From assembly GCF_964204645.1 (NCBI RefSeq), contig NC_134029.1, positions 15,804,950 to 15,868,949 of the forward strand: 64,000 bases of DNA. Reading direction: 5' to 3'. The notes beneath the pieces were generated by a model that was not told the DNA's origin, did not search any database, and was given only the letters and a program-made list of their open reading frames with translations. Below are positions 3,092 to 64,000 of this stretch, piece by piece. The position numbers and the translations under genes were made by a program. Source of the DNA: Tubulanus polymorphus. Lineage: Eukaryota > Animalia > Nemertea. How positions within the stretch are numbered: the stretch's first letter is position 1; the number at the start of each line of letters is the position of its first letter.

Positions 3092-3322
3092 TTAAAAGAT
3101 ACTGTAATCCTCTTGATCATTTTCTAAATTAACTTTTTTATTCTTTTTACTTTTATGATTATTTCCATTTAATTTCTTTAATTTCTTATTCAATTTCATA
3201 TTCTCATTCATCAAATCTTTACTAATATTTTCATAATAAAAGTATAATGCGGCCAATATTAACCCTCCTGCTACAAGGTAATGTTTCAAATCACTACTTC
3301 CGGTTGGAATGAAACCATCCAT
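3092..3322 (-). CDS. Small single-TM protein with basic tail (76 aa)
   Basis: TM segment YLVAGGLILAALYFYY; preceded by the AATTTTTTTCTTTAATAAATG motif shared with structural genes of copy C. Confidence 0.65.
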   Translation of the reverse strand: MDGFIPTGSSDLKHYLVAGGLILAALYFYYENISKDLMNENMKLNKKLKKLNGNNHKSKKNKKVNLENDQEDYSIF

Positions 3323-3495
3323 TTATTAAAGAAAAAAATTAAAAAATTAATAAATATTCAATATTTCATAATCATTTTTAAAATATTAAACTTTCATATG
3401 ATTAAATCAAATAACAATTAAACTTTCTAACAGTTATTCAATAACTAATTTCTCAATGTTTTAACTATTATATATTTGAAACATAGAGCTTTACC

Positions 3496-11083: not shown

Positions 11084-11374
11084 GTAAATCAGTTTAGTTA
11101 TTTCATACCTTTTTAGCCCACTAGGGACTTTAGACCGAAAGTCGATTATTTGGGATATTTCTCTAAAACTTTTGAACACATACTGTAGGCCTACCTGAAT
11201 TTGATCATCATACTACCAGTGAAACTGGTATATTGTGGGTTGACTGTAAATCAATTTTAACAATATGTTTCCGTGCCTACCATTTGAAATTATAATCAAA
11301 TCATCAAAAATCAATGGTTCGTAGGCATGGAAACTCAGGACGCATATTGTTAGAATTTCAAAAATGGCTTATTT

Positions 11375-43443: not shown

Positions 43444-46147
43444 ATCACCATAATAAAATATATCTATGTAGAAAATGTTTACATAAATTCAGTAATGAAA
43501 GTACATTATTATATCATAAACAATTATGTGAAAATCATGATTATTGTAAATTAGTTTTACCAAATGAAAAGGATAAAATATTAGAATTCAAAAAATATGA
43601 TTACAAAAATAAAGTTCCATTTGTTATATATGGAGATTTTGAATCATTAAATAAAGAATTAACTGATCAAGATAGAAAAGAAATATATTATAAAAGAAAG
43701 AAATTAAATTCTAATGAAAATGATTTTTCAGATGAACCACCAAAAACAAATACTATTAAAAAGATTCATCAATCAGCTGCTGCTTTCGGGTTATATATTA
43801 AATCTGATTATACAGAACTAATTGAAAGTGAATATTATCATTACAGAAATGAAAATGTTATCAATCATTTTTGTGACTTATTAATTGAATATGAAATAAG
43901 ATTTATTAAATTATTGAATACAAATAAAGAAATTTTAATGACAGAAGAAGATAAAGAAGAATTTGTGTTTACAGATAAATGTTATTAGTGTGAAAAGATA
44001 TTTAATTTTAGAGATAAAAAAGTAAGAGACCATGATCATTTGAACGGAAAGTTTATAGGCGCTGCACATGAGAATTGTAACTTACAAGCTAAGAAAATTA
44101 ACTTTGTACCAGTTATATTTCATAATCTATCAGGATATGATGCACATTTATTCATCAAACAGTTATGCCATAAAATAGAAGAAATTAATAATGAAATAGA
44201 AAGATTAAATTCAAATAGATCAAAAGATAAAAAACCAACTTATAAATTTAGAATGTTAGCTAAAACATCTGAGAATTATATATCATTCCAATTTGGGTGT
44301 TTAAGATTTATAGATTCATATAGATTTTTAAATAGTTCATTAGATAACTTATCAAAATCATTAGTTGATGATGAATTGAAAATATTAAAACAACACTACC
44401 CAAATAATGATGATTTTCAATTAATGAGATATAAAGGCGCAATTCCATATTCTTTCTATAAAAATCATAATGATTTTAACATAACTGAATTATTGAAAGA
44501 ACAATTCTATGATGAATTAAAAAATGAATATGTTAAAGATGAAGTATATAATAGAACATTGAATATTTGGAATCATTTCAAAATAGAAAATCATGGACAA
44601 TTAGTAGATTCATATCTAAAATCAGATGTATTATTATTAACTGATATATTCGAAAGGTTTAGAGATGTAAATCTAAAATATTTCGATATTGATCCATGTC
44701 ATTGTTATTCAAGTCCAGGATTAACATGGGATCGTGGTTTAAAATTTACAGATATAAAAATGGATTTGTTAACAAATATAGATCAATTACTATTATTTGA
44801 AAAATCTATAAGAGGAGGAGTTTCAGGTGTATTAGGCGATAGATATTTCAATGTAAATGATAATCCTGGATATAAGTTATTATATATAGATGCAAATAAT
44901 TTGTATGGTTGGGCAATGATGGAACCACAACCTTATGGAGTATTTGAATTAACTGAAGTTTCACAACATGAAAATAATGATAAATTTGATTGGAAGAAAA
45001 GAATTCTAGATATTGCAGATGATTCAGATACTGGTTACTTTTTTGTTGTAGATTTAGAATATCCTGAACATATTGAATTTAAATCTAGAAATCTAGCATA
45101 CTGTCCAGAACATAAAACTGTAACTCATGAAGAATTATCAAATTATCAAAAAAGGATTAAACCCGAAAATCATATTCATACAGAAAAGTTAATGGTAACT
45201 CAGGAAGATAAATATAATTATGTAGTACATTATAGAAAGTTTTATTTGAATCAAGGAATGGTTCTAAAAAAAGTACATAGATATATTTCATTTAGTCAAT
45301 CTAAATGGTTAGAAAAATATATAGATTTTAACACCAAACAGAGCACTGAAGCTAAAACTGATTTTGAGAAAGATTTCTTCAAGTTAATGAACAATGCATT
45401 CTATGGTAAGACTTGTGAAAATATTAGAAATAGAAATGATATTGTTATGATATGAAAATTTAGCTGCAGTTAAAATGAGAAGAACTTCTATGAAATTAAA
45501 TAAACCAATTTATGTTGGTGCTTCAGTTTTAGAAATATCAAAGCTATTGATGTATGAATTCTATTATAACGTATTACAACCTCATTTTGGAGAAAAGCAT
45601 ATAGAAATCTTATATTTTGATACAGATTCTTACATATTAAAGATTAAAACTAATGACATAACAGATGATTTAAAAACATTAAAACATCATTTTGATTTTA
45701 GTATTTATCCTAAAGATCATGAATTGTTTAACAATGATAATAAAAAGGTGCCTGGTAAATTCAAAGATGAATTAGGTGGTGAAGAAATGATTGAATTCAT
45801 TAGTATTACATCTAAAATGTATTCATATAAAACCAAAGAACATGAAGCTAAAAAGTTAAAAGGAATTACCAAAAGCGTTGTTGAAAAGAATATTCATTTC
45901 AAAGATTACATCAATTGTATATTCAATGAAGAAGTTAGAAAACATGAGATGTTTAAGATCTGAAGATCATGAAATGTTTATTGAAGAAATAGAGAAGATA
46001 AGTTTAAACCCATTCGATGATAAAAGATATATTTTAGATGATGGAATTCATTCAGTTGCTTTTGGTTGCAATTTAGATAAATACTTAAGATTTAAAAGAG
46101 AAGAAACAAAAGAGAAGGAAATAATGAACAGGATTATAACGTGTTAA
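43444..46147 (+). pseudogene. polB: Polinton PolB fragment (copy B), from the zinc finger before the exonuclease domain to the C-terminus
   Basis: VIYGDFES, RDHDHLNG..AAHENCN, FHNLSGYDAH, YIDANNLYG, KLMNNAFYGK, YFDTDS. Stop at about 43987 and frameshifts near 45450 and 45950. Highly similar to 60740..63691. Confidence 0.93.
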
Positions 46148-46176
46148 TCAAATTTCAATTAAAATATGTATTATAA

Positions 46177-46229
46177 ATGGAGAGTAAACAAGTACACAGT
46201 GAGAACAACAAATCATTTCTAGATAGAAA
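46177..46229 (+). pseudogene. Truncated start of the 117-aa Polinton ORF (end of copy B)
   Basis: MESKQVHSENNKSFLDR matches the start of 60290..60643. Confidence 0.8.
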
Positions 46230-48269
46230 CACATTATTATTCGAAAATGAAATTATTAAATTCGTGGAATCAGTTGTAAAGCTGAAAAAAGAAATACGGT
46301 TATGATTGGGTCAGGATAAAGACAAAGCAATAAGTAACCTGGCAGACTAGGTTGAGGCAAATGTATGATTCATCAGTGGAACACTGACCGAGGCTACAAT
46401 ATTGTAACCTAGGTCAGTTGAATCGGTATTCGAAAAACGCCTAATGAAAAACACCGAATCGGAAAACGCATAACGCCTAATTCCTAGAAAATGACCTAAT
46501 TTAGAAGCTGTGCTATTTACCGATATTGTCACTTTCGTGACATACTATTTAGTGATACTCACAATCCAATTCAATTACATAACGGAAAAATGGCAGCTTT
46601 CTCAACCGATGATATTAGAAAGATCAGAAGGGTTAGTATCAAGAGGGTTTAGGGTTTAATACTATGGGCTAGGCTTTACATAGTTACAAAATTAACGGTT
46701 TCGGAAGCTCGCATCGCTAGTGCTGTCGTAAAACGTTACGCTTACACTCCGGTGTTTGCGTGTTCGAATCCTGATTTTTTGGGGTATTTTTCAAGAGTTT
46801 TCAAGTCCATACAGTCAATGTGCATGCGCGACGAGCCGATTAGGATCTACCCTTTAAAACCGGCCTCAAATTTTGAATGCCGGAATCATTAGATGGTCGT
46901 GCATAAATATGGTACAACGGCAACGCGCACGAAGACTGATAGCCTTTCTCAAATAATCCTCCAACGGTTCACATCCACGCTATGTGAGTCTTATTCAGAT
47001 TAGGCCTACCAACGAGTGGTGTAAATGATCTCAGCCCCTGAACTCAAAGACAAAAATAATAAACTAAGTTCCATATCAAAAATAAATGTCTTTTATTATC
47101 ATGAAATAATAACAAGATTTATTAGATTTATTAGCAGTATAATACCGGTACACTTACGTATCACTTCGGTACACTCCCTGATTTCTTATCAACTTCTCTC
47201 TTCGTTACACATAATTGAGTCAAGGGAATTAAAAATATAAGAAGTTGTGCATGCATACTTTATGGATGGCCACGTAGGCTTACACCCAAGGAAATACTTG
47301 TACATGTATTCTAATGTCTATTTCAACTTTGATCGGACTTGATCAACTGACGTATTTACCTAATTAATATGTCCGTAAATCACTAGCAGTGGACAGTGGA
47401 ACTAAAACATCAATTTTTTAATGCATTTTACGCTATATTGAAGGAATGTCAAAAGTTCTCTAATTTACTAAACAGAATCGGAGAAAAAAGTCTTCATTTT
47501 CTGTTTCCAATGTCTAAATTACCTACAAACCATGATAAAAATGTTTTGAAAATACACGTATCTCGGTTTGTAGGCATAGAAACAGAAGGCGCATTTTCAA
47601 ACTTTATTGACACATTGATTTGGGACATTGGGAAGGTTGGTACTTTATAACCAAAACTGAGTTACTTCACCCAAATAAGATTAAATAGACATTGGAAGTA
47701 TTAAATGAAAAACTGAAAAAATGATAAGTTCTCTTACCAATGCATAAATACATATATTTCTTCACTAATCAATGCATAGGCTACAAACTGGTACACAAAC
47801 TCGATAGATCACACTCGATCCACTGAAAATAAGAGTTAAATGATAATCAGAAAAATTGAATTCATTGATCTAGAATTAAAAATAACCTTTATGAAGAAAT
47901 TGTTGGTAGTTTTTCAAATGGCCAACAGTCATTGATGCCTGTAAACTTGCAGTAACTTTTACTGCACCTGGAACGAAATTAGGATATTTCTTATTAATAC
48001 AAGAAACATTCAAATGGTAATATGTATTTTGTCGTTTGTCACTAACACATAAATTATTTGTATTCTTATCTAAGTATGTGCGGTAATCTAATTTTCGTAC
48101 AATCAAATCACTTGGAGTTAATCTATCAAAATCAGTAAATTCTTTAATTCGCACACCAAGTAAGAATACAAGAAAAAAACCATCATCAGAATGGGAAATA
48201 CTATTATCACAACCAGGATTACCACGATATCTTCTAACAGTTTGTCCCTTCATTCCAGCAGTAGATAAA

Positions 48270-49170
48270 AGTAATAGGGATAATAGGCTTTCAAGCCAAA
48301 GGTCGAACGGTCGAGCTCATTAAAAAACAAAACATTAAAAGTAATTTAAAACTATAATATATTTTCATAACCGTGTGCATTTTATATTATAACTAAATAT
48401 TTATTCTAAGATATTAATAATTTTAATTTTAAAAGCATATTGTATTAAATCAATTGGTCGCTCCACTTCGCTACCGCTCCGCTCCGCGACCAATTGATTT
48501 ATTTACAATACACAAATTCATATAATCAAATATATTTTGATAATAATAATTATTCTATTATTCAACTGAAATACACACGGTTATGAAAATATATTATAGT
48601 TTTAAATTACTTTTAATATTTGTTTTTAATGAGCTCGCCCCTTCAACCTTTAACCTGAAAGCCTATTATCCCTATTACTCTTAAAATATTCATATACATG
48701 AATAACATTTAAATTGACAGATTATTCAATATAAAAGTGTAAGCTCTTATAGAATAGATATATAGATATATTTTAAACATTATTTCAATATTCATATTTG
48801 TTAGATTTTTAAACATTGAAAGTGTTAGTAAAGTGTGATTGAAATAATACATGATATAAATCATTGAACTTCTAAAATCAATTTTAATAAAAAATTTAGT
48901 ATTAAAATGGAAGCAAATAAGTACTACTGCCCAACATGTAATATCAATATAGATAAATCCCAAAAAGCAAGACACAATAAAACTAAAACACATTTAGAGA
49001 ATAAATTGAAATTAGAATATGAAGATGATATATTGGAAACTAAATTAGATGTTTAAAGAATGAAAAAGAAACATACAAATGTGATACATGTAATCAATCA
49101 TTCAGTGATAAAAGATTTTATAAAGAACATTTAAAATCTAAAAGTCATATTAGAAATAAGAATAATGATA
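48270..49170. repeat. Left TIR including a 410-bp terminal fold-back (48270-48680)
   Basis: 48640-49170 is the reverse complement of 63427-63965; 48270-48383 pairs with 48569-48680. Confidence 0.9.
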
Positions 49171-49739
49171 ACTTATTTTCATTATTTAACATTACAAATT
49201 ATATCTCAGCAACAAATTTAGTGTATGGAAGACAATATAAAATTGATAATATTTCTATAATCAATCAAATATTATCAAATGAAGCATATTTAATTATTGA
49301 ACTGATAGATAATGGAATCAAAAGTCCTAACATATTTAATACAGTTTTAAATCATAAAGGAATTTTAGATGAAAAAATTATAAATATTCTTGAAACTCCT
49401 TTCAATGAAAGAAATGATGATTTAATACTTTCTAGAGGTTACAATAATTTGATTAACTTAAGAATTGAAAAAAGACAATTATATTATTTAAATTTTGATG
49501 ATAAACCAATTATCTATAATGAAAATTCATCAAATATTGGTATTCAATGTGAATTAGATAATAATAATTCTTATAAAGATATTGGAATTCAATGTAATTT
49601 AGATGATGAAATTTTTGCGCCTAAATATAATCCGAATGATAGCGTTTTATGTAATTGTGGAAAATATTATACTCGAAGCAATAAATCACACCATCTTAAA
49701 TCAAAATATCATAACTCCAAATATGTTAATCAATTTTAA
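48907..49739 (+). pseudogene. Zinc-finger accessory protein (~277 aa): PolB-identical N-terminus fused to the homolog of 3496..4131; 1-nt deletion at about 49051
   Basis: MEANKYYCPTC..., then CDTCNQSFSDKRFYKEHLKSKSHIRNKNND continuing in frame into NYISATNLVYGRQYKID. Confidence 0.8.
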
Positions 49740-49757
49740 TAAAAATATGTATAATAA

Positions 49758-50420
49758 ATGGAGGAACAATCACAAGCTATAAATATAAACAATAATGGTG
49801 TAACAAATATATGCTATAAGAAATGTAATAAGTGTGAATTGAATAAATCATAAACAGAATTTCAAAAAGATAAAACTAAAAAAGATGGCAAACAAACATA
49901 TTGCAAAAGCTGTACTAAACTATACAATAACAAATTTCTTGAAAATAATCCAAATTATTCAACACAATATTATATGGATAATATTGAAAAATTCAAAGTT
50001 AGAAATAAACAATGGAGAGAAAATCACTCAGATTATATAACAGAATATATGAGGGAATGGAGGGATAATAATAGAGAATATTATAAAGCGTATCAAAATA
50101 ATTATAAGAAAGAAATCAAACAGATTTTAATTACAAATTGAAAAAATGTTTAAGATCTAAAGTATCAAAATTATTCAGTAAAGAAAACCACTCAGTTACA
50201 TTAGCACATTTATTGGATTGTTCAGATAAATTTTTTAAATCATGGATAATATATCAATTCGATGATAAAATGAATATAAATAATTATGGCAATTATTTTC
50301 ATATTGATCATGTGTTACCAATATCTAAATTTGACATGAATGATGAATACGATAAAAAGTTAATTTGGAATTGGAAAAACCTGAGACCTCTTGAAAAGAG
50401 ACCTGAGACCTTCTCTAATA
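49758..50420 (+). pseudogene. HNH endonuclease of the type found in giant DNA viruses, with N-terminal CxxC..CxxC
   Basis: KKCNKC...FQKDKTKKDG...YCKSC, helical linker, LLDCS..F.KSWI.YQFD..M...NYG.YFHIDHVLP...NWKNLRPL. In-frame stop at about 49851 and a scrambled 3' end. Confidence 0.8.
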
Positions 50421-50423
50421 TAA

Positions 50424-51032
50424 ATGTCAAAGAAATCGAGTAAGAATAGTATTGATATTGAAAAGACATTAGATGATTTGGGTATAAGTGATAATAAAGA
50501 TACAGTTGTAACTAATTGTGCTCAAGTTAATTGTAATATTGATTATGAATACTATTTATATTGTAAACACCATCTTGAATTACTAATTGCTGGCGGGAAA
50601 TCTAAAGAGTTTTTAACTAAGATAATTACTTTTCAAGAATTAAATGCTATGAAACCAGATAAAGTAATAAAATATTTTAAGATTTATGAAGAAGCTAGAT
50701 TAGCTAGAATAAATGATTCTATTTCAGATGGTATTATAAAATGTTATTCTAAGTTATGTAACCAGTTAATACCAATTAATGATGAAAATAAATTATATAA
50801 TGATTTGAAAAATGACTACTTAGTTATGACTGAATTACAAAAATGGGTTGGTTATGCTTCATTTCAATTAGGATCGGTTATGACATTAATTTCTACTGGC
50901 GTCATAACATTTTCGAACATCAAGCCTATGGAATATAAATCAGGTAAGAACGAAACAGATGACGCTGTACTACAACCAAACGTCGAAACAGAAAATGAAT
51001 CAGAACAAAAATTAACTAAAATAAATGAGTGA
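50424..51032 (+). CDS. Uncharacterised Polinton protein (202 aa) with hydrophobic C-terminal helix
   Basis: Intact ORF with TAAATG start, tightly packed between neighbours. Confidence 0.75.
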   Translation: MSKKSSKNSIDIEKTLDDLGISDNKDTVVTNCAQVNCNIDYEYYLYCKHHLELLIAGGKSKEFLTKIITFQELNAMKPDKVIKYFKIYEEARLARINDSISDGIIKCYSKLCNQLIPINDENKLYNDLKNDYLVMTELQKWVGYASFQLGSVMTLISTGVITFSNIKPMEYKSGKNETDDAVLQPNVETENESEQKLTKINE

Positions 51033-51393
51033 TGATGTTAAGAAAAAGGCTAGATCCGAGAAACAAATTAAATGGGCAAGAGAATTAGGTAAAAGATCTT
51101 CAGAATTAAAAAAAGCTAAGAAAAAGAAATTAACTGATATAAATGAATCACAGAAATTATCTGATATTGATTCAAATAATAATCCATCTGATTCTTCTAA
51201 TGCTGGAAGTAATTATAAATTATATATTACAATTGGATAAGTAACAGTTATTATATTATCCGGTGTAATATATAAATCAAAATTCAAATCTGATGATAAA
51301 TATGATTCCAATGATAATAAACCTATCATACCAGAAAATAAGTCAAATCATAAAGCCATTGAAACTAAATCTAAATTATTATTAATGGATTAA
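51025..51393 (+). pseudogene. Basic N-terminal helix + TM protein (~122 aa), interrupted by a stop at 51238
   Basis: Reading through the TAA gives LYITIG*VTVIILSGVIY (TM segment) and continues to LLMD* just before the integrase ATG. Confidence 0.65.
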
Positions 51394-51399
51394 AATAAG

Positions 51400-52492
51400 A
51401 TGAAAAAAGAACAATATTTAAGAGATTTATATTACAACCCAGAAAATGAAGTATCATATTCTAACGTTTCAGAATTATGGAATAAAAATTAAATCTGATA
51501 ATGAAAATGGTGATATAAAATATAGTGAATTAAAATCATGGTTACAAAATCAACCAACATATCAAATCCACAAGAAAATGGAAAAAACTTATTTAACAAG
51601 AAAAGTTATTGTTTCATATATCGATCAACAATGGCAAGCAGATTTAATTGACATGAAGAACTTAGAGGAATACAACAAAGGATATTTCTGGATATTAAAT
51701 GTTATAGACATATTCAGTAGATACGCATGGTCAATTCCAATCAAAAATAAAACTGGCATAGAAGTGACAAATGCTTTTAAATCAATATTTAAAGAAGCTA
51801 TTCCAGATAAGATACAATTTGATGAAGGTAAGGAATTTTATAACAAACATTTCAAAAAACTATTATCTGATAACGATGTAGATAATTTTTCAACACATTC
51901 AGATAAAAAAGCATCTATTATAGAAAGATTTAATAAAACATTGAAAACTAGAATGTGGAAATATTTTACTACTAATGAAACATATAAATATATCGATGTG
52001 TTAGATGATTTAGTGAAAGGTTATAATAATTCTAAACATAGTTCTATAAATATGAAACCTATACAAGCTAGAAAAGAAGATAATTCAGAAATAGTATGGA
52101 ATAATTTATATGGAGCATTTGTTACACAGGATTTCTGCGAACCTAGATTTAAAATAAGACAACACGTTAGAATATCTAAATATAGAAAAACATTTTATAA
52201 AGGTCATACCCCTAATTTTACAGAAGAAATATTTAAGATTAGAAAGATAATATTAACTAAACCATTTGTTTATAAATTAGAAGATCTAAAAGATGAAGAA
52301 ATATTAGGTTATTTCTATGAACAAGAATTATCACTTGTACCAAATCCCGATGAAATAGAATACAAAATAGAAAAAGTATTGAAAACAAAAACTCTTAAAG
52401 GAAAAAAGTATTCTTTGGTGAAATATAAAGGATATGATGATAAATTTAATGAATGGATTTTATTTAGTAAAATTAAAAGAATAAATGAATAA
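51400..52492 (+). CDS. int: Retroviral-like (rve) DDE integrase with C-terminal chromodomain; frameshift near 51485
   Basis: LRDLYYNP start, WQADLIDM, IDIFSRYAW, IQFDEGKEF, IIERFNKTLK, and chromodomain YKIEKVLK...LVKYKGYDDKFNEWI. Confidence 0.93.
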
Positions 52493-53097
52493 AGATTTAT
52501 TTATATTTGAACCGCATAATATGTTAATAACTGGAGTAACAAATTGTGGTAAAACATATTTCATATTAGACTTGTTAGAAACTATTCATAAGAATCATTT
52601 TGATAATATAATATTATTTTGTCCTACTTATGAAATGAATAAAACATATAATAGAGATATAGTTAAGATAAAAAAAGTTTATTATATTAGATCCTAAAAC
52701 AGTCAAAGAAAATTTAGATAATTGTATTAAAATAGCAATTGATACTTATAAAGGATCAAATACATTATTCATTGTAGATGATTGTGCTAATTTACATGAT
52801 TCAAAAGTGAGAGAAAGTGAGTTATGTTATTTAGCTTTCTCTGGGAGACATTTCGGGATAACAACATGGGTTTTAAATCAAAAATATAATTCAATTGTTA
52901 AAGACTTTAGGGAGAATATAAGATTTCTAGTTTTATTTTATAACAAAGATAAAAAATCTATGCAACAATCATTGGAAGAAAATCAAATTATACCTACTGA
53001 ATTACATGATGAATATATGAATAAATTAAAGAATAATAAAGGTTCAAAATTATTACTGAGATTAAAATTTCCATATGAATATAAATTTATAAAATAA
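52485..53097 (+). pseudogene. A32/FtsK-like genome packaging ATPase, frameshift at about 52670
   Basis: Walker A GVTNCGKT, Walker B LFIVDD (about 52765-52782), SGRHFGITTWVLNQKY. Confidence 0.9.
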
Positions 53098-53099
53098 CT

Positions 53100-53470
53100 A
53101 TTTGTATACCCCAATACATGATACCCTAATACCTGATACCCTATTAGATACCCTAATACCTGATACCCTATTAGATACCTTAAATACTTAAAACCCCCTT
53201 TTTTTAAATAAATATTTTTTATACAATTTTCAACCAATTTATTTTTGTTTTTTCAACTAATATATGAATAAGTTTGAAAATAATAAAGGTTATTTATTAT
53301 TACTGAGGTTTCAATTTCCATATGAATATCAGTTTATAAAATAAGATATTTTATGTATTAGATTGTATTAGATATGTATTAGATATGTATTAGATACCTT
53401 AAATACCTTAAATACTTAAAACCCCCTTTTTTATTTACTATTATTTTATACAATTTTCAACCAATATTAT
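53100..53470. terminator. Convergent intergenic zone with short repeats and a ~240-bp imperfect duplication; putative bidirectional termination region
   Basis: GATACCCTAATACC and GTATTAGATA repeats; TAAATACTTAAAACCCCCTTTTTT occurs twice; homolog at 2680-2720. Confidence 0.4.
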
Positions 53471-53602
53471 TATTTGTGTTAAATATAATTAATATTTTAA
53501 TCACTTTCACTATCAGACCCTAACAATTTATTCAAATTCTCTACCGTATCATCGTCAATAGTTGTTTTATTTTTATACTTTTTCGTCCTTTCTACCGCAT
53601 CA

Positions 53603-54359
53603 TCAATAGTTTCTTCTTTCTTCTTTATGTTTCATAGAATCTTTATTATCTATATCTGTAACTATATCACCATGTGGGTGCCGTATGGCACCATTTTCAT
53701 TATTATCTTTATTAGTGTTTGCTCCTAATATTTCATTTACAGTGTTTGGTTTTAATATTTCATTAGCATCGGTTAGATCTAATTCATCTTTATTAGGTGT
53801 TGCTAATAATAAATCTTCATATATTTTTTCACCATTTACTTTTTGATTTGAAACAAACTTTGTAACATATCTAAATGGGTGTTCTATAAATTCTTTTAAA
53901 CCAACACGTTCTATAACATTATTTATATGTACCCTTGTATTCATATGTTTATTCCAATTTGATGTAGCGTTTGAAAATTCACTTTTACAATATCCACAAT
54001 AATTTCTATTTTCACTCATATTTAATTTTATTTCATTATTAGATGTAGAAGGTATTACATTATTAGATGTAGAAGGTATTACATTATTAGATGTAGAAGG
54101 TATTACATTATTACATGTAGAAGGTATTACATTATTACATGTAGAAGGTATTACATTATTAGATGTAGATGGTATTACATTACTTATTATCAACAACACC
54201 ACTTTTATTATTATCGATTTCTATTAGTTTAGTTTTATAAATTTTGAAAATAGGATCAAATATCAAAGCTATATTACAAGGTATTACATAATATAAACCA
54301 TCATTATTTTCATGTGTATCGATGTATGGAATATGTTTATATACTTTACCTCCTTCCAT
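53603..54359 (-). pseudogene. Accessory protein with 8-aa repeats and a C2H2 finger; frameshift near 54185
   Basis: Start MEGGKVYKH at 54359; six 24-bp repeats (NNVIPSTS/C, about 54036-54185); CGYCKSEFSNATSNWNKHMNTRVH. Confidence 0.6.
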
Positions 54360-54391
54360 TTATTATATAAATTTTTACTAAAGTTAAAATT

Positions 54392-55629
54392 TTAATACAT
54401 AACACTATTCAATTGAGAATTTACAATATTTAATTGCGCGTCAGATATAATATAAATATGCATTTTAAAATTTTTGATTCATTTATTCTTTGTCATGAAT
54501 AATTGTATTCCATCCTTTGTATTTTGTAATTTTTTTCCAGAACCATGTAATGAATTATCCTCTGTTGTTCTAAAATCTAACCATAATGCATATTTATTAC
54601 CGGTATAATAATCAATTTGATTAATATTACAATTTTCAGATGATTTCACTTTTTCATTCATAAAATGTTTTCTAATTTCTGGCCATTGATCTATCATTCT
54701 CATTCCTTGACAAAATATTTTATTTGCTATTCCTTCGATAGTTATTTCTACTTTTGTTATTTCAGGATTATAATAATTATCAACATTTATTGCGCCATTA
54801 GAATATGTTGCAATGGTAAAAAATATTAATATACCTTTAATAGATCTTCTTGGGAAGTTAATATTCTCATTAATAATTTCATCATTTGCATTAATAGTTA
54901 CAGTTTTAAATTTATCAATATAATCATATAATAATGAAAATCCTTGATTGTATTTAGTTTGAATTATACTTGAAATATTTTCATCAGTTACTGTATCATA
55001 TTCTAAACATATATTCGATAATTTATAACTCATATCTTTATTAACGCTAGATAATACAATTTAATTAACAGAAGCAAATGTTATTTCGAATATAACGTCT
55101 TCTTGAATTGCGTATTTATATAAAGGCGCATTATTATTTATCAATTCAAAGTCTAATGGAATTTTATATTTGCTTCCATATATACTTTTTATCAATTTAT
55201 CTACAGCATTAGTTAATATTGCATTATGTGCTTCTGATCTTAATTTATTTTGGTTTTCTGATTGGATTCCTTGAAATATCATATTATTTCTATTTTCTTT
55301 AATTAACCATAAATCTTTATAATGCATAAATAAATTATAATCATCTAATGAGAAAACTGTTTCTGGGCCAATCTTTATTGTTAATTTTCTAATCAAATAT
55401 CTTCCAACATTATCAACAACATAATTATTATTATTACCGATTACTTTTATATCGGCCGATAAATAAATACTATTTGGAACGTAAAAAGTATTTTGTGTTA
55501 ATCTCGGAATTCTAACATATAAAGTTTCATCGGGATTAATATTAGAAGGCTTATATGATGTGATCTCTCTGCTTTAATAGCATTAGATATTCTATGATTC
55601 TTAGAAGGATATATATAACTCCCACTCAT
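54392..55629 (-). pseudogene. Putative double jelly-roll major capsid protein (~410 aa), broken by a stop and frameshifts
   Basis: Joined frames: MSGSY..., PSNINPDETLYVRIPRL..YVPNSIYL..VVDNVGRYLIRKLTIK, YKDLWL, YKIPLDF, NINFPRRSIKGIL, YNPEITKVEITIEG, ALWLDFRT..LHGSG, ISDAQLNI. Size and beta-rich pattern fit Polinton MCPs. Confidence 0.75.
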
Positions 55630-55649
55630 TTATTTAACAAAAAAATTAA

Positions 55650-57100
55650 TCATTTATTTTTAATCATGTTTACTAGCCCAAAAATAATAGCACTTACAAC
55701 TGTAATTAAAAATAAAATAATATGTTCAGCAGCAAAGTTAATAATGTTTCCTGCAGATTTCAATATAAAACCAACAATTGATGCAATAACTCCTGGTAAT
55801 GCTGCAGCAGATTTCTTTGATAGTTCCCATAAATATTTTGCTAATTTCTTTAAACCAACTTTAACTTTATCTTGTATAGAATTATTACCTGGGGGTTTAT
55901 CCGGTTTATTGGGAGTAGGAGTAGATTTCAAAGCATTTGATATAGCTACCCTATTGTTGTAAATACCATAGTTACTGCTGTTAGAATTGAAAGAATTGTG
56001 ATTCCTTCAAACTTAAATAATAATTTTATTCTATCTTTCAATGATATTTCAGAATTTGGTTTAATTATTAAATCTTTAACAACAACTTTTAATCTATTAA
56101 TACAATAATCATATGATTTTTTTAATAATTTAATTTCTTCTTTCTGAAATTCTATGTTATATTCTAAATCATCAATTTCTTTTTCTAAATATGCATTTCT
56201 TTTTTAAAATTCAATTTCTTCAATAACTTTATTATCTCTATCTAATTTTAGTTGTTCCGATTCTTTTCTTGATTTAAATAATTCATCTTCTAAAGTTCTA
56301 ATTTTTAAATCTCTTATACTTTTATCATGCGCAATTTTATCAGCTTCATTTCTTATACTAATAATTTCTCTTATTGCTTTATCAGAAAGTATATTATTTA
56401 AATCTTCTAATTGTTGATCTGTTGCATCAAGTAATCCATTCGGTAAAAGTTTTTCAATTGGAACTCCTTTTGAATTAGGTTTACTAGTTTTGGAAGTTAT
56501 ATTCTGTTCAGAAGTTGTTTCTGTTTCTAAATTATTATCGATTGTTTCAAATAATTCATTAATTCTTTGTTTAAATACTCTTTCATTTTTAATAATTTCT
56601 TCTTGTGTTACATCTTCTATTTCATTACTATTTCTTATTCTTTTAATTCTAGATAGGTCTAACTTAAGCAAAGTTGATTCTGCTAATATTTTGTTTTGTT
56701 TTTTATAAGAGATATCAATATAATAATCATCTTTCAAATGATAATAATATTCACCATCTAAAGATTTTAATTCTTGTACTAAAAGTCTGGCGCCTCCGGC
56801 ATTTATATTATATCCAGATTTTTCAAATATAGGTTTGAAATTATAAATATATTCATTATATTCTAAATTTTGTTTTACTAAATCTGGATTTTCATTTTCA
56901 GGATTTATTCTCGATCTAGTTCTTCTATCAAATTCATCTGTTGATTGGCCTTTAGAACCACTATCTGCTTAATTAGAATTATATGCTGATTCATTACCAT
57001 CATCAATATTAGTTTCTGCATCATTAGAATCATCATCAATATATCCCTCATTATTATTTCCCATGCCTTCCATTTCATAATCTTCTCCACCTTCTGCCAT
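55650..57100 (-). pseudogene. ~480-aa protein with acidic N-terminus, coiled coil and C-terminal hydrophobic/amphipathic helices (putative membrane-active virion protein)
   Basis: Start MAEGGEDYEMEG at 57100; pieces 56204..56737 and 55650..55931 joined through stops/frameshifts; C-terminus AAALPGVIASIVGFILKSAG..HIILFLITVVSAIIFGLV. Confidence 0.7.
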
Positions 57101-57115
57101 TTACATAATAACAAA

Positions 57116-58412
57116 TTAAAATTTAAAATATAATATTCCTCCGATTACAATTCCTATACAAGTTAAAGCTAATTTAGTATTTTCATGGGATTTATTATCA
57201 TCATTTAGTTTAATTATTTCATGTTGAATATTATCAGTTCTAATATTTTCTGATGTATTATAATCCGGTTTAGAATCATTATTTAATTTAATATTATTAG
57301 TTTTAGTTTCTGTTGATTGAATGTGTTTTTCATTTTTTTCACCTTCCATTAATTTTGGAGCAGTAATTGTCTTTGTATTTATAATATTTAATCCAAATGA
57401 ATTATTTATTGTTGCAGTTTTAATTAGATTATTATAACCAATTATATTTCCCATCTTTAATACTAAATCATTAGAAATAATAAATAGATTAGGGCCTATA
57501 CAATAATTTAATCTAATATGTGATTTATCTAAATAATTTTGATATCTTACAATGTTTTCCGGAATCGATCTATTTTTATCATTATGAATGGAATCTTCAA
57601 ATAATACTTTAAACTGTTTCTGCGCATCGAATGAAGTGTTATCATTTCCAATTATTGGGGATCTTGTTTCAACTTGCGCACCTAAAATACATATCAAATA
57701 AGTTGTAATAGATTGATTTATTCTTTGTATACCTGATTTTGTAAAACCTTCACCATTTTCTAAAATGAAATTAACCCAACCATTATTATTATCAATTTTA
57801 TGATTATGATAAGCTCCAATTCTATGCATATAATCAATTCTTTTTATTTCATACTCTTCACCAACACCTTGCAATTTACCATGCGCTCTAAAATCGGAAT
57901 TAATATTTATATTAAATTCATTACATATTTTATAAAACTTAGATAGATTAATATTATTATCCAATTCTTTAAAATATTTAGACCCAGGTAAAGGACATTC
58001 TTATTCATTTAATATTATTCTGATTTGAAAATATGTGTGAAATCTAAATATTGTGTGAATTAATTTTAAATCAGAATACTTCAAATTTTTATCTAAGTTA
58101 TTTAAATGATCATTCCAACTTATTCCACATCCTGTTGTTGCACAATAAACAGCAAAATTTAATTGATTCTGCCAATATTTCATATTAGATTTTACTTTAT
58201 ATATATGATATTCATCTCGAGTAAAAGTAACTTCATATGTATTAAATATATTTTCCATTTTAGAAATAAAAAATTGATTCAGTAACATAAATTTCTAAAT
58301 TAGTTAATGAATTTAAAACTACATTTCTATATGTAATATTTTTCTTAAAATCTATTGCAGGAATATTATATTTAATTGATTTATTATATTGGAAAGCTTT
58401 TGGAAACCCCAT
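57116..58412 (-). pseudogene. ~430-aa uncharacterised Polinton protein with C-terminal TM anchor
   Basis: Start MGFPKAFQYN; WQNQLNFAVYCATTGCG; stop at about 58001, then in-frame ECPLPG into 57116..57964; C-terminus ALTCIGIVIGGILYFKF. Confidence 0.7.
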
Positions 58413-58428
58413 TTATATAATTAAAGAA

Positions 58429-58863
58429 TTAATAATTAACTAATTCTTTTAATAATTTATCTTGTTCTTCAACTGTTATATGACCATTTAAACTTATTAT
58501 ATGATCTAGTGTATTCTTTAATTTATTAATTTCTTTTATATTAGTTTTAATTTTTTCTTTATTACTTTTTATATTTAATTTTGAACTTATACCAGTTAAT
58601 ACACTTGAACTTAATCCTAATACGCCAATTGATATAGCTAAAGGTGTTAATGGACTGAATATTGCTAGAAATGTTATTACAGAACTAATTGTAACCGAAC
58701 CACTTATAATCAAATAATATATAATTTTACATTTTAAATATTTTTTCTTTTTTATCTTTAAGTCACTTTCAAATTCTAATATTTGTTTTTCTAAATATGT
58801 TTTTAATTTAGTTTTATTTATATCATGAGGAATAATATCAATATTATCAACTTTATCTTCCAT
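58429..58863 (-). CDS. Two-TM coiled-coil protein (144 aa)
   Basis: Intact ORF with two adjacent hydrophobic helices flanked by lysine-rich coiled segments. Confidence 0.8.
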   Translation of the reverse strand: MEDKVDNIDIIPHDINKTKLKTYLEKQILEFESDLKIKKKKYLKCKIIYYLIISGSVTISSVITFLAIFSPLTPLAISIGVLGLSSSVLTGISSKLNIKSNKEKIKTNIKEINKLKNTLDHIISLNGHITVEEQDKLLKELVNY

Positions 58864-58883
58864 TTATTTAGCAAAAAAAATTA

Positions 58884-59306
58884 CTAATTAGTAAACTTAT
58901 AAGCAACAAATATAACAATAACAGTTCCGCCTAAAATCCATATTATTTCATATTTCTGTTGTTCTTTACTCGGGGTATAATAATCTGATAATTTAGGTTT
59001 GTATAGATGTAATTTTTCTTTATTGGTTACCGCGTTATATAAACTCATTGCATCATCAACTGATTGAAAATCTCTATGTGAAATCTTCTGATCATATAAT
59101 TCCTTGTTAATATAATCCAAATAGTTTTGTCGTTTTTCTCTGTATTCTTCTGCTGCTTTATTGTATTTCTCTAATGCTAAGTTATGTCTTCTTTGTTCTC
59201 CTAATGAACTATTTTTATCAATATGCTTAAATAAATAACCACCACCAGTAAATGCTAAAGCGTTAACAATTGCCGATCCTATAATAGTTATAATTGCAGA
59301 AGCCAT
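58884..59306 (-). CDS. Membrane protein (140 aa) with N- and C-terminal hydrophobic helices
   Basis: MASAIITIIGSAIVNALAFTGGGYLF...EQRRHNLALEKY...IIWILGGTVIVIFVAYKF. Confidence 0.8.
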   Translation of the reverse strand: MASAIITIIGSAIVNALAFTGGGYLFKHIDKNSSLGEQRRHNLALEKYNKAAEEYREKRQNYLDYINKELYDQKISHRDFQSVDDAMSLYNAVTNKEKLHLYKPKLSDYYTPSKEQQKYEIIWILGGTVIVIFVAYKFTN

Positions 59307-59330
59307 TTATTTAGCAAAATAATTACGCAT

Positions 59331-59552
59331 TTATATGGGAGGAATATATTTTTGTTTTTCTAAATAATCAATAGTTAAATTAGATAAAGTAACTGCTAAC
59401 GTTAATTTTAAAATATCATTTATATCAAATCTATCAACATTAACACTTCCCATTTTAAATACTTTTTTTAATACCATTGAATAACCAACCGTTCCAACTG
59501 ATAGTAATGCTCCATTATATAATCCAGTTATTATCCACTTATTATCACTCAT
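59331..59552 (-). CDS. Small hydrophobic protein (73 aa)
   Basis: Intact ORF with the shared upstream motif AATTTTTTTGATAAATAAATG. Confidence 0.72.
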   Translation of the reverse strand: MSDNKWIITGLYNGALLSVGTVGYSMVLKKVFKMGSVNVDRFDINDILKLTLAVTLSNLTIDYLEKQKYIPPI

Positions 59553-59687
59553 TTATTTATCAAAAAAATTACTATCTTCAAAATATTTAGTTATCTTATT
59601 TATGATTAATTCAACATTTATTTCATTACTAGTTTCATTTGTATATATTTCAATTATTATTTTTTTAATATCATCGATGATAAAATC

Positions 59688-59909
59688 TTAATCTAATTCA
59701 TAAAATCTTAAAGATTCTCTAATTAAATTAGTAATCTTTTCGACATTTAAAGTTTCTTTATCTATTGTTGTTTCATACTCAAATGTTGTTTCATTAGAAA
59801 ATGTAATATTTTTAATATGTGTAATTACATCATTAACGTTAAATTTCATTTCTTTCTCGCGTTTAAAATCAAACCCAAAACATATACTCGGTCCAACAGT
59901 TATATTCAT
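59688..59909 (-). CDS. Small hypothetical protein (73 aa)
   Basis: Intact ORF with upstream AATTTTTTCACTATATAAATG. Confidence 0.55.
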   Translation of the reverse strand: MNITVGPSICFGFDFKREKEMKFNVNDVITHIKNITFSNETTFEYETTIDKETLNVEKITNLIRESLRFYELD

Positions 59910-60272
59910 TTATATAGTGAAAAAATTAGTACTATCAATTTTATGAAATTTAATTTCAAATACAGAAGTGCCCCCGATTTTCAACCGAGCTCTTCTATTA
60001 ATTTCCTGCGCTAATGATTCTAAATTATATAATCCTGGTTTTAAAAATATGTGAAACCATTTATCTTTATTTCTCATATAAATCATAAACCCTCTATGTT
60101 CAAAAGTTTTATCTGATATATTATAAAAAGAATTACATAAACTTATATTTACTAATTTTAAATCTACACAATTCTTAAATTCTCTATCTAATTGTACTAA
60201 TAAATTATGAGATTTATAATTAGTAAGTTTTCTTGAATCAACAAATATTCTGTATTCTTTTAATTCCACCAT
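59910..60272 (-). CDS. Penton/minor capsid-like N-terminal domain (120 aa), short or truncated
   Basis: IFVDSR...LLVQLDREFKNCVDLKLVNISLCNSFYNIS...LKPGLYN resembles the start of single jelly-roll minor capsid proteins. Confidence 0.55.
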   Translation of the reverse strand: MVELKEYRIFVDSRKLTNYKSHNLLVQLDREFKNCVDLKLVNISLCNSFYNISDKTFEHRGFMIYMRNKDKWFHIFLKPGLYNLESLAQEINRRARLKIGGTSVFEIKFHKIDSTNFFTI

Positions 60273-60289
60273 TTATTTTACATATTTTC

Positions 60290-60643
60290 TTATTCGAAAT
60301 CTATTTCATGGTGCCCCTTTTCATTCTTACCTGTGTATACGAAATAGAAATCTCCAGAACATAATTCTTCTAAGTCTTCACTTGATAATCTATGAAATCT
60401 ATCTGGTAAATATGTTCTGAATTTATACGTATTTCCTTTTAATCCTTCATATTCTAAGTGTATAACTAATTTATCTCCATAGTTATTAGTAACTGTATCA
60501 ATATTTGTAATTAGATATTTCTTATGAATTATTAATTCTGTTAACTTTTTGAATTTATAATCTACAGATTTTACATTTGTTATATCTTTAATTCTATCTA
60601 GAAATAATTTGTTGTTCTCACTATGCGCTTGTTTACTCTCCAT
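60290..60643 (-). CDS. Conserved small Polinton protein (117 aa), possible SSB
   Basis: Homolog of 497..838, immediately downstream of PolB. Confidence 0.78.
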   Translation of the reverse strand: MESKQAHSENNKLFLDRIKDITNVKSVDYKFKKLTELIIHKKYLITNIDTVTNNYGDKLVIHLEYEGLKGNTYKFRTYLPDRFHRLSSEDLEELCSGDFYFVYTGKNEKGHHEIDFE

Positions 60644-60739
60644 TTATAATACATATTTTTATTAAAATTTGATTAACACGTTAGAATTCTTTTCATTATC
60701 TCATTCTCTTTTGTTTCTTCTCTTTTAAATTTTAAGTAT

Positions 60740-63691
60740 TCATCTAGTTACAGTTTTATGTTCTGGACAGTATGCTAGATTTCTAGATTTAAATTTAATA
60801 TGTTCAGGATATTCTAAATCTACAACAAAGAAGTAACCAGTATCTGAATCATCTGCAATATCTAGAATTCTTTTCTTCCAATCAAATTTATCATTATTTT
60901 CATTCTGTAAAACTTCACTTATTTCAAATACTCCATAAGGTTGTGGTTCCATCATTGCCCAACCATACAAATTATTTGCATCTATATATAATAACTTATA
61001 TCCAGGGTTATCATTTACATTGAAATATCTATCACCTAATACACCTGAAACTCCTCCTCTTATAGATTTTTCAAATAATAATAATTGATCTATATTTGTT
61101 AACAAATCCATTTTTATATCTGTAAATTTTAATCCACAATCCCATTTTAAACCTGGACTAGAATAACAATGACATGGATCAATGTTAAAATATTTTAGGT
61201 TTACATCTCTAAACCTTTCGAATATATCGGTTAATAATAATACATCTGATTTTAGATATAAATCTACTAATTGTCCATGATTTTTCATTCTAAAATGATT
61301 CCAAATATTCAATGTTCTATTATATACTTCATCTTTAACATATTCATTTTTTAATTCATCATAGAATTGTTCTTTTAATAATTCAGTTATATTAAAATCA
61401 TTATGTGATTTATAAAATGAATATGGAATTGCGCCTGTATATCTCATTAATTGAAAATCATCATTATTTGGGTAGTGTTGCTTTAATATTTTTAATTCAT
61501 CATCAACTAATGATTTTGATAAGTTATCTAATGAACTATTTAAAAATCTATATGAATCTATAAATCTTAGGCAACCAAATTGGAATGATATATAATTCTC
61601 AGAAGTTTTAGCTAACATTCTAAATTTATAAGTTGGTATTTTATCTTTTGATCTATTTGAATTTAATCTTTCTATTTCATTATTGATTTCTTCTATTTTA
61701 TGGCATAACTGTTTGATGAATAAATGTGCATCATATCCTGATAGATTATGAAATATAACTGGTACAAAGTTAATTTTCTTAGCTTGTAAGTTACAATTCT
61801 CATGCGCAGCACCTTTAAACTTTCCATTCAAATGATCATGGTCTCTTACTTTTTTATCTTTATAATTAAATATCTGTTCACAATAATAACATTTATCTGC
61901 AAACGCAAATTCTTCTTTATCTTCTTCTGTCATTATAATTTGTATATTTGTATTCAATAATTTACTAAATCTTATTTCATATTCAATTAATAAGTCACAA
62001 AAATGATTGATAACATTTTCATTTCTATAATGATAATATTCACTTTCAATTAGTTCTGGATAATCAGATTTAATATATAAACCGAAAGCAGCAGCTGATT
62101 GATGAATCTTTTTAATAGTATTTGTTATTGGCGGTTCATCTGAAAAATCATTTTCATTAGAATTTAATTTCTTTCTTTTATAATATATTTCTTTTCTATC
62201 GTGATCAGTTAGTTCCTTATTTAATGATTCAAAATCTCCATATATAACAAATGGAACTTTATTTTTGTAATCATATTTTTTGAATTCTAATATTTTATCT
62301 TTTTCATTTGGTAAAACTAATTTACAATAATCATGATTTTCACATAATTGTTTATGATTTAATAATGTACTTTCATTACTGAATTTATGTAAACATTTTC
62401 TACATAGATATATTTTATTATGGTGATCACTTTCTGTTCTAAAGAATAAATCTATTTGTTTAATCCACATATAATGATTCTCATAATATAATATATCTAT
62501 AACATCGTTTGAATCATAATCTTTTGATAGGTATAAAGGTTCTAATGTATAATGTTTTATATTGTTACCTTTTGTATTTGGTAATTTGATTAAATCAAAT
62601 ACATTTATCTTTATATTATTATCTCTTTCTATTTTTGGGATGTTTTTAATTATAACAGGATACTTATCTATCTTATAATTATTTTCAAATTGTTTATAAT
62701 TTGTTAATCTATAAGTATGTTTATTATAGTCTTCAACTGGGTGTAAAGAACTTATTATAGCCCATAGAAAACATTTATCATCTTCATTTTGTACATTTAT
62801 TACAGCATTAGTTTTAAATGGTAGTTTAATATAACTTGATGCTTCAATATCTGGTTCTTTATAATATGATACATTATTTTCATCAATTGGTTTTGATTTA
62901 GTTAACTTATTATATTTTGTGTTATAAACATGTAAAGTCATAAATATTATCTCATCAAATATTAAACCAGACCCTTCAAAATATTTCTCTTCTATTTTAG
63001 TTTTTACATCATTATAACATTTATCTAATTTATCATCTATATGTTGTTTATATATAATATGTTGTGAATGAGAATTTATATTATATATTGGTTCATCTTC
63101 AGATTTTATGAATTTAACTTTAGAAAATATACTTATTTTAGGATATTCAACATCAGTTATTATTTTTATTATTTCTTTCATATTTTCTAAATGTTTTTTA
63201 TTTTCTTCTAATGTTTTTCCTTTATGAAATTTAAACTCAATAGCTGCTGGACCAATATCACTTTTAAATGCTTCGGTTATCTCTATATCTTTTTTATTAT
63301 CTAATGAATTAATATATTTTCTTACATCTTCCATGTATGGTCTTTTATTGTTTAATTTATTTGTTATGCTTTTAATTGTCTTCTCTTTCTTATCATTATC
63401 TTTATCGAAATAATCTTCACCTAAAATATCATTATTCTTATTTCTAATATGACTTTTAGATTTTAAATGTTCTTTATAATATCTTTTATCACTGAATGAT
63501 TGATTACATGTATCACATTTATATATTTCTTTTTCATTCTTTAATTCATCTAATTTAGTTTCTAATATATCATCTTTATATTCTAGTTTCAATTTATTCT
63601 CTAAATGTGTTTTAGTTTTATTGTGTCTTGCTTTTTGGGATTTATCTATATTGATATTACATGTTGGGCAGTAGTACTTATTCGCTTCCAT
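60740..63691 (-). CDS. polB: Protein-primed PolB (983 aa), internally deleted so that motifs B and C are lost
   Basis: Two zinc fingers, OTU-like NEDDKCFLWAI..NHY, ExoI VIYGDFES, EndoVII-like insert, ExoII HNLSGYD, ExoIII YLKSDV, motif A YIDANNLYG. After HKTVT it jumps to the C-terminal YLKFKREETKE (60674-60745, out of frame). Confidence 0.93.
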   Translation of the reverse strand: MEANKYYCPTCNINIDKSQKARHNKTKTHLENKLKLEYKDDILETKLDELKNEKEIYKCDTCNQSFSDKRYYKEHLKSKSHIRNKNNDILGEDYFDKDNDKKEKTIKSITNKLNNKRPYMEDVRKYINSLDNKKDIEITEAFKSDIGPAAIEFKFHKGKTLEENKKHLENMKEIIKIITDVEYPKISIFSKVKFIKSEDEPIYNINSHSQHIIYKQHIDDKLDKCYNDVKTKIEEKYFEGSGLIFDEIIFMTLHVYNTKYNKLTKSKPIDENNVSYYKEPDIEASSYIKLPFKTNAVINVQNEDDKCFLWAIISSLHPVEDYNKHTYRLTNYKQFENNYKIDKYPVIIKNIPKIERDNNIKINVFDLIKLPNTKGNNIKHYTLEPLYLSKDYDSNDVIDILYYENHYMWIKQIDLFFRTESDHHNKIYLCRKCLHKFSNESTLLNHKQLCENHDYCKLVLPNEKDKILEFKKYDYKNKVPFVIYGDFESLNKELTDHDRKEIYYKRKKLNSNENDFSDEPPITNTIKKIHQSAAAFGLYIKSDYPELIESEYYHYRNENVINHFCDLLIEYEIRFSKLLNTNIQIIMTEEDKEEFAFADKCYYCEQIFNYKDKKVRDHDHLNGKFKGAAHENCNLQAKKINFVPVIFHNLSGYDAHLFIKQLCHKIEEINNEIERLNSNRSKDKIPTYKFRMLAKTSENYISFQFGCLRFIDSYRFLNSSLDNLSKSLVDDELKILKQHYPNNDDFQLMRYTGAIPYSFYKSHNDFNITELLKEQFYDELKNEYVKDEVYNRTLNIWNHFRMKNHGQLVDLYLKSDVLLLTDIFERFRDVNLKYFNIDPCHCYSSPGLKWDCGLKFTDIKMDLLTNIDQLLLFEKSIRGGVSGVLGDRYFNVNDNPGYKLLYIDANNLYGWAMMEPQPYGVFEISEVLQNENNDKFDWKKRILDIADDSDTGYFFVVDLEYPEHIKFKSRNLAYCPEHKTVTR

Positions 63692-64000
63692 TTTAATATA
63701 AAATTTTTTTTTAAATTGATTTTAGAAGTTCAATGATTTATATCATGTATTATTTCAATCATACTTTACTAACACTTTTAATGTTTAAAAATCTAACTCA
63801 TACAAATATGAATATTGAAATAATGTTGTAAATATATCTATATATCTATTCTATAAGAGCTTACACTTTTATATTGAATAATCTGTCAATTTAAATGTTA
63901 TTCGTGTATATGTTTATTTTAAGAGTAATAGGGGTAATAGGCTTTCAGGTTAAAGGTTGAACGGGCGGGTGAGTAAAAATGAAAAACATGAAAATAATTA
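63427..64000. repeat. Right TIR of copy C (incomplete in window)
   Basis: Reverse complement of 48640-49170; includes the inner hairpin arm AGAGTAATAGGGGTAATAGGCTTTCAGG at 63922. Confidence 0.9.

Follow-up and report, generated by a model that had tools for sequence, protein, structure and literature searches.

A Maverick/Polinton element in the genome of the nemertean Tubulanus polymorphus opens 14 of the 17 genes of its largest fragment on the sequence TAAATG, and an A-then-T tract at a fixed distance upstream completes a layout that resembles the late promoters of poxviruses. The element is present as three fragments, set in repeat-rich host DNA, within the 64,000 nucleotides that we analyzed (NC_134029.1, positions 15,804,950 to 15,868,949; hereafter the window, numbered from its first letter); the element is AT-rich, and its largest fragment lies at about 48500-64000. 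From this signal and its distribution among relatives, we think it rather probable that the element is a satellite, virophage-like in habit: a pox-type virus in the same cell would provide the RNA polymerase and post-replicative factors, and the sites would be the promoters on which these act. It is debated whether the Polintons of animals live as viruses in their own right, as transposons or as parasites of larger viruses, and the signature bears on that question: since it can be read from sequence, it makes the Polinton lifestyle testable for one lineage. If the reading is true, the virophage way of life extends from protists to integrated animal elements, and the signature points to pox-like viruses in hosts where the searches made here found none.

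A promoter-like signal over the start codons

Gene starts of the main fragment were fixed by tblastn to relatives or by the position of the open reading frame (ORF). TAAATG occupies 14 of 17 of these starts as against 40 of the 629 other ATGs in 48500-64000 (Fisher p = 8e-14), and as against 335 of 4431 first-ATG-after-stop sites (7.6%) in 30 composition-matched simulations (p = 1e-13). A first-pass annotation, made from the letters of the window, had proposed such an enrichment, which thus holds over both backgrounds; all 16 starts that it quoted do read TAAATG, two of them (46177 and 3322) belonging to the other fragments. Its claim that nearly every gene starts this way stands for 14 genes and fails for PolB and the integrase: PolB (63691) and an inverted copy of its start (48907) read TAAAATG, and the integrase (51400) reads TAAGATG. 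The composite of AATT, T-run and TAAATG occurs seven times in the element, compared with a simulated mean of 0.73 and with none of 300 simulations reaching seven. The six 21-mers quoted for it hold letter for letter: AATT lies 21 nt ahead of the ATG's end in each, and the spacings of 20 and 22 nt at 57100 and 58863 are as described. At 58412 and 57100 the AA of AATT is part of the upstream stop, and at 59909 the TAA also serves as the stop of a truncated upstream frame. A TATAWAWR box of the RNA polymerase II (Pol II) type lies 30-120 nt upstream of only one of the 17 genes, compared with 14% of random windows.

The conserved signal is wider than AATT, which is present here but not conserved in relatives: what they keep is an A-tract followed by a T-tract, together spanning 15-8 nt upstream, and then TAAAT(G) after a spacer of 7 nt. 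We profiled 53 starts of ORFs of at least 70 aa in clade A, the group of relatives that includes the window, counting positions upstream of TAAAT. A is dominant at -15 to -13 and T at -12 to -8 (89% at -9, 75% at -10), hardly any G or C occurs from -14 to -9, and 77 non-start TAAATG sites are flat. Four or more T's fall within -12 to -8 at 30 of the 53 starts and at 6 of the 77 non-start sites (p = 1e-9). Clade B and the long-branched locus L034, taken together, show a similar shape with less power (7/18 versus 3/37, p = 0.01).

The T-run form and an A-rich form, the latter found at PolB, the 117-aa gene and the probable penton gene, are the ends of one continuum. Genes for the major capsid protein (MCP) and for the 73-aa and 440-aa proteins are T-rich; those for the ATPase, the probable penton and the accessory proteins after MCP are A-rich. 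The proposal that virion genes share the T-run therefore survives as a tendency, with the ATPase (52485) and the likely minor-capsid gene (60272) A-rich and non-virion genes T-rich too. A clean division into intermediate and late, or virion and non-virion, classes was not found, as non-virion genes such as the kinase of L001 are also T-rich. In L001, the closest relative, this deoxynucleoside kinase gene (Pfam dNK, E = 2e-31) lies at 10340-10981 under a T-run TAAATG.

The tract is tied to the initiator rather than to the gene before it. Among 38 tandem starts, 28 have a T-run, whose end varies with a standard deviation of 4 nt relative to TAAAT and 35 nt relative to the upstream stop; the TAA is itself the upstream stop in 3 of the 38 pairs. 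The signal is also present, with its strongest tract, at 19 head-to-head starts, and in eight head-to-head pairs the ATGs are only 15-30 nt apart. Given the fixed spacing to TAAAT and the head-to-head starts, the signal has the look of a short promoter laid over the start codon and does not look like a terminator or stop-start junction. Gene ends showed no evident hairpin or polyT in common. The earlier suggestion of one promoter-like signal per gene is supported, and neither AT content nor stop-start overlap explains it.

In the published description of vaccinia late promoters, TAAAT mostly runs on into the start codon's G, and a conserved T, with weaker T's around it, stands 10 nt upstream; intermediate promoters are described as TAAA with an AT-rich block further up (PMC11980589); the A/T cores, 8-11 nt long, lie about 11 nt upstream in the intermediate class and about 6 nt in the late class (PMC12722222). 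TAAA is described as read by the poxvirus polymerase itself (PMC12917281), and slippage on it as the source of 5' poly(A) leaders (PMC6211774). Set beside these descriptions, the core at -15 to -8, the T peak at -9/-10 and the 7-nt spacer of the element fit the vaccinia late class, and the poxvirus late layout that had been suggested is borne out in initiator, T position and spacer.

Distribution of the signal among relatives

A search with a capsid alignment gave 72 metagenome loci and 2 genome loci, whose core genes were grouped by BLAST and whose starts were taken as the first ATG after a stop. The counts cover 40 loci out of 74, after removal of near-duplicates and of loci that lack a gene start, and 14 ORF pieces with internal or broken starts were dropped. 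Groups come from an MCP tree of 54 rows and were named after the starts had been inspected; support for the clades is 100/98 and 100/100, and the ATPase tree agrees on the deep split. TAAATG stands at 40 of 45 core starts in clade A (12 loci, GC 20-44%), at all 14 in clade B (7 loci) and at three of four in L034. It stands at none of the 32 starts in the sister rows C, whose 5 loci do not form one clade, and at none of the 68 in outgroup D, whose 15 loci span GC 26-60%. Non-start ATGs in these loci are TAAATG in 1-6% of cases. The signal is kept at GC 40-44% (L006, L007), and AT-rich cousins (GC 26-30%) have no TAAATG starts; together with the clade counts, this indicates a trait that is close to all-or-none within each element and does not depend on AT content. 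Position -3 is T in the window lineage as against a purine at 27/32 starts in C and 61/68 in D, and a Kozak context does not explain the signal.

At least two changes of state are needed for the TAAATG trait. A single origin is weakly rejected when L034 is included (p-AU = 0.029) and is favored neither way when it is left out; clades A and B may be a single clade or two. Degraded clade-B copies in L056, L058, L061 and L062 adjoin coding pieces like those of long interspersed nuclear elements (LINEs), and from these neighbors it follows that TAAATG elements integrated in another eukaryote too. None of the IMG/VR scans, whether run with MCP, the integrase or the MCP alignment, turned up a relative.

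The cousins carry other start signals. Within group C (L016, L019, L021, L022, L024), TATA lies no more than 18 nt from the ATG at 22 of 32 starts, versus 7% of other ATGs, with a T-tract 15-12 nt upstream of it. This TATA is too near the ATG for a Pol II TATA box and is like the TATA initiator described for African swine fever virus (ASFV) late genes (PMC7458399). In the AT-rich part of D (L020, L025, L026, L028, L031, L033, L040-L043, L073), TAAA is found within 18 nt of the ATG at 29 of 33 starts and TATA at 17 of 33, often as TATAAAAATG, possibly a third promoter type. The GC-rich part (L027, L029, L032, L053) has no motif near the ATG (TATA at 4/35), and its members may be transcribed by the host in the ordinary way. 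A VLTF3-like gene is present in L016, L017, L021 and L041, scoring 33.2 bits in L041, above the Pfam cut-off, and 24 bits in L021 and 19.9 bits in L016, both below it; neither the window nor clades A and B yielded such a gene. The presence of VLTF3 in polintons is already known (PMC8502044, PMC11131425). These patterns may reflect, although we would put this at somewhat less than an even chance, a Polinton family of satellites that switched helpers, with the window lineage of pox type, a cousin lineage of asfarvirus type (a T-tract, 11-12 nt, then TATA and a short leader, accompanied in L016 and L021 by the VLTF3-like gene) and a GC-rich lineage of neither. If so, promoter type would name the helper class, and the pattern would predict undiscovered pox-like viruses of marine invertebrates. 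Mimicry of helper promoters is already known; what this analysis adds is promoter switching across the family.

Who reads the sites

Because relatives of the element share the pox-late-like signal and cousins do not, the lineage likely takes its RNA polymerase from a pox-like helper. Each gene would be transcribed from its own site, beginning in the AAA of TAAAT, and slippage of the polymerase would add a 5' poly(A) leader that replaces the missing 5' untranslated region and supplies the A at -3 that the DNA lacks. The genes for PolB, integrase and capsid would come on only in cells that a helper has infected, where the element would replicate with its own PolB, package its DNA and integrate through rve; integration of such progeny would explain the roughly 100 diverged copies described below. 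RNA polymerase families were not detected in the scanned ORFs of the window and relatives, in keeping with the earlier claim that the element encodes none. Coding sequence tolerates the hexamer AATAAA: the window has 41 such sites over 9.6 kb, an observed/expected ratio of 0.91, and the ratio is 0.86 in clade A, 0.91 in clade B, 0.45 in group C and 0.91 in AT-rich D. This mildly favors cytoplasmic transcription. Depletion of the pox early terminator TTTTTNT in coding sequence (2 versus 9.6) was rejected as a signature, as all homopolymer runs are depleted.

A number of observations weigh against a pox-type helper. The promoter-like sites are known from sequence alone, and the match to vaccinia rests on published sentences, not on measured poxvirus sequences. 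The helper did not turn up: no pox-like contig came out of the IMG/VR motif scans, in which the exact T-run motif had three chance matches, in phage-like contigs, and the literature searched held nothing on nemertean poxviruses. An integrated copy is nuclear and a pox factory cytoplasmic; the reading does not account for the first transcripts. For coral polintons, expression is described, and the text examined names no helper (PMC11131425). The AATAAA test is weak, with clade A slightly depleted and the AT-rich cousins not; T at -10 taken alone is not significant in clade B plus L034 (11/18 versus 12/37, p = 0.08); and PolB and the integrase lack an exact TAAATG in the window copy. Finally, contigs of prasinovirus-like nucleocytoplasmic large DNA viruses, pre-selected for the motif, reach 35-40% TAAATG starts.

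These last contigs bear on the most serious rival, in which host Pol II reads the sites in the nucleus, steered by factors of a nuclear large DNA virus or by an uncharacterized element protein, and the likeness to poxviruses is convergence on a TA(A/T)A initiator. The IMG/VR contigs highest in TAAATG carry capsid and cap methyltransferase genes and are, we presume, prasinoviruses, lacking a polymerase. Prasinoviruses use host Pol II. A short TA-rich initiator at the ATG is therefore no proof of a viral polymerase, and integrated copies are nuclear, several conserved element proteins have no assigned function, and cousins encode the VLTF3-like factor (above the cut-off in L041, below it in L021 and L016). 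Searches for that factor, however, came back empty for the window and for clades A and B. The saturation of the window lineage with TAAATG is also unusual: among 72 IMG/VR loci with at least five ORFs each, selected for a head-to-head TAAATG motif, starts reach at most 40% and no locus attains 50%, as against 82-100% here. Head-to-head genes 15-30 nt apart leave no room for a leader, and T at -3 fits a poly(A)-leader mechanism. We consider the Pol II explanation unlikely, though not negligibly so.

Another reading makes TAAATG a translation signal, the TAA stopping read-through or coupling stop and restart on polycistronic RNAs, and makes the T-tract the terminator of the upstream gene. In its favor, gaps in the gene block are only 15-24 nt, the TAA doubles as the upstream stop at 59909 and in three of the 38 tandem pairs, and ASFV genes are described as ending at polyT (PMC7458399). 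Yet 35 of the 38 pairs are not stop-start, the signal is present at the 19 head-to-head starts, where the tract is strongest, the tract keeps its distance from TAAAT and not from the stop, and TTTTT lies nearby at only 3 of 16 convergent ends; we regard this reading as improbable. Least probable by far is an artefact of 78% AT sequence combined with first-ATG-after-stop ORF calling. TAA is indeed the commonest triplet before ATG in the element (54/646), but simulations under the same calling rule give only the 7.6% noted above, and the signal persists in relatives of GC 40-44% and is absent from AT-rich cousins; simulations, start counts and upstream profiles refute the artefact. Transcription by a pox-type helper accordingly stays the reading that we favor.

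The element, its copies and comparable systems

The window copy matches the hallmarks of Mavericks/Polintons, namely a protein-primed PolB, an rve integrase, an A32-like ATPase and a double jelly-roll MCP, and is a degraded relic of the element's cycle, the majority of genes in the main fragment being broken. On the minus strand of that fragment, the order begins with PolB (60740..63691, 3'-truncated, its start placed by tblastn to relatives' PolB), whose A-rich TAAAATG signal is at 63689..63715. Next come the 117-aa gene (60290-60643; A-rich site 60641..60661) and the probable minor-capsid gene (59910-60272; A-rich site 60270..60290), then four small genes, all with T-run sites: 59688-59909 (site 59907..59927), a conserved 73-aa gene (59331-59552; 59550..59570), a conserved 140-aa gene (58884-59306; 59304..59324) and a 144-aa gene (58429-58863; 58861..58881) with a weak SLATT-like match. 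Two broken genes of about 450 aa follow, a conserved one of about 440 aa (57116-58412; site 58410..58430) and one of about 450 aa (55650-57100; site 57098..57118), and then the broken MCP gene (54392..55629; T-run site 55627..55647) and a broken accessory gene running towards 53603 (A-rich site 54357..54377). The plus strand holds the inverted copy of the PolB upstream region and N-terminus (48605..49170), a broken HNH-like gene (A-rich site 49740..49760; HNH is a weak match on the relative L002), two small genes, one a conserved 202-aa gene (50424-51032; site 50406..50426) and the other starting at 51025 (site 51007..51027), the broken integrase gene with its chromodomain (51382..52492, start at 51400) and the broken ATPase gene (52485-53097), whose site (52467..52487) overlaps the end of the integrase frame. 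The second fragment carries PolB (43410-46147) and then a cut 117-aa gene with a plus-strand TAAATG site at 46159..46179; the third has a 76-aa ORF with a minus-strand T-run TAAATG site at 3320..3340.

PolB was assigned by Pfam DNA_pol_B_2 (E = 7e-14) at 43989-45455 in the second fragment, and the gene at 60740-63691 is 96% identical to the copy at 43444-45144 over 1.7 kb. The integrase matches rve (E = 2e-9), and both pieces of the packaging ATPase match Pox_A32. MCP in the window is 72% identical (tblastn) to that of L001, whose structural model (pLDDT 87) matches the capsid proteins of PBCV-1 and the iridovirus SGIV with TM scores of about 0.62; on this modeled fold, the major capsid protein is double jelly-roll. 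The minor-capsid label is inferred for a conserved family of about 240 aa, truncated in the window copy, for which a search of the PDB gave no match. The protein of about 440 aa has 3305 relatives at E up to 0.001, and its model (pLDDT 87) matched no known fold (best Z 4.0), membership of a known family still being possible. Apart from PolB, the largest gene is about 490 aa at most. No Pfam match to a cysteine protease, a trait of Maverick/Polinton group 1, was found among the ORFs scanned in these incomplete elements; Rfam gave no match and PHROGs no informative one.

A 576-bp inverted repeat (48605-49170 versus 63427-63999, 93% identical) is the probable terminal inverted repeat, the window stopping short of the right terminus. 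Just beyond its left copy, 48266-48683 is an inverted repeat of itself (76%) that surrounds a GC-rich hairpin (about 48451-48497), and numerous reads terminate at 48270; this may be two ends head to head or an end structure. Read depth over 43000-64000 is mostly 400-950 on core genes versus 4-17 in the quietest flanks, which suggests about 100 element copies in the host species, and these have diverged, since 40,666 of 52,295 reads are only 90-99% alike. At the convergent gene ends in 53012-53507, the 3' end of the ATPase is duplicated and short tandem repeats occur, as does a C-run/T-run motif found again at 2690-2720, where the fragment near 2700 ends. Elsewhere the window contains LINE-like remnants (a weak RVT_1 match), which lend some support to an animal host, and, at 10400-25500, a tandem array of a 2523-bp unit with 154-bp subunits, host satellite-like DNA.

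In the literature searched, mostly open papers without supplements, we found no poxvirus-type promoters in Polintons; the supplements of PMC11296320 could matter here. Its main text contains none of the words promoter, motif or TAAAT, and promoter is likewise absent from the text available for PMC8502044, PMC11131425, 10.64898/2026.06.19.733378, 10.64898/2026.10.13.758929 and 10.1101/2024.03.23.586382. In gene content, the element is like the animal Mavericks/Polintons described there, with protein-primed PolB, rve integrase and chromodomain, A32 ATPase, double jelly-roll capsid and no protease detected (PMC8502044; 10.64898/2026.06.19.733378), and it probably belongs to group 2. With published vaccinia late promoters (PMC11980589, PMC12722222, PMC5294985), it shares TAAAT and G over the start codon, an A/T core that is about 8 nt long and ends about 7 nt upstream, and a T peak 9-10 nt upstream; it differs in being a small element in which no RNA polymerase was detected, with an A-then-T core and no clean intermediate and late classes. 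The cytoplasmic virus-like elements pGKL1/2 of yeast are also replicons with protein-primed PolB, and a TAAAN initiator there gives rise to 5' poly(A) leaders by slippage, but they encode their own polymerase, have an early-type upstream element and are without capsid or integrase (PMC6211774).

Two systems offer parallels in lifestyle. Polinton-like viruses associated with entomopoxviruses have been proposed as poxvirus parasites; they encode a cysteine protease, none of which was detected in the ORFs scanned here, two are without integrase, and the evidence is co-occlusion in occlusion bodies (PMC11296320). Mavirus and its endogenous relatives (EMALEs) in Cafeteria are, like the element, small integrase-bearing DNA viruses whose promoter motif differs by type, one type's motif matching the late promoter of its helper, the giant virus CroV (PMC10945749). 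Their host is a protist and their helpers are mimivirus relatives, for which other promoter motifs are described (PMC5294985, PMC11788076), TCTA in the case of CroV (PMC5294985). Activation by a helper is established there, and only the EMALE type with the CroV late motif responds to CroV (PMC10945749).

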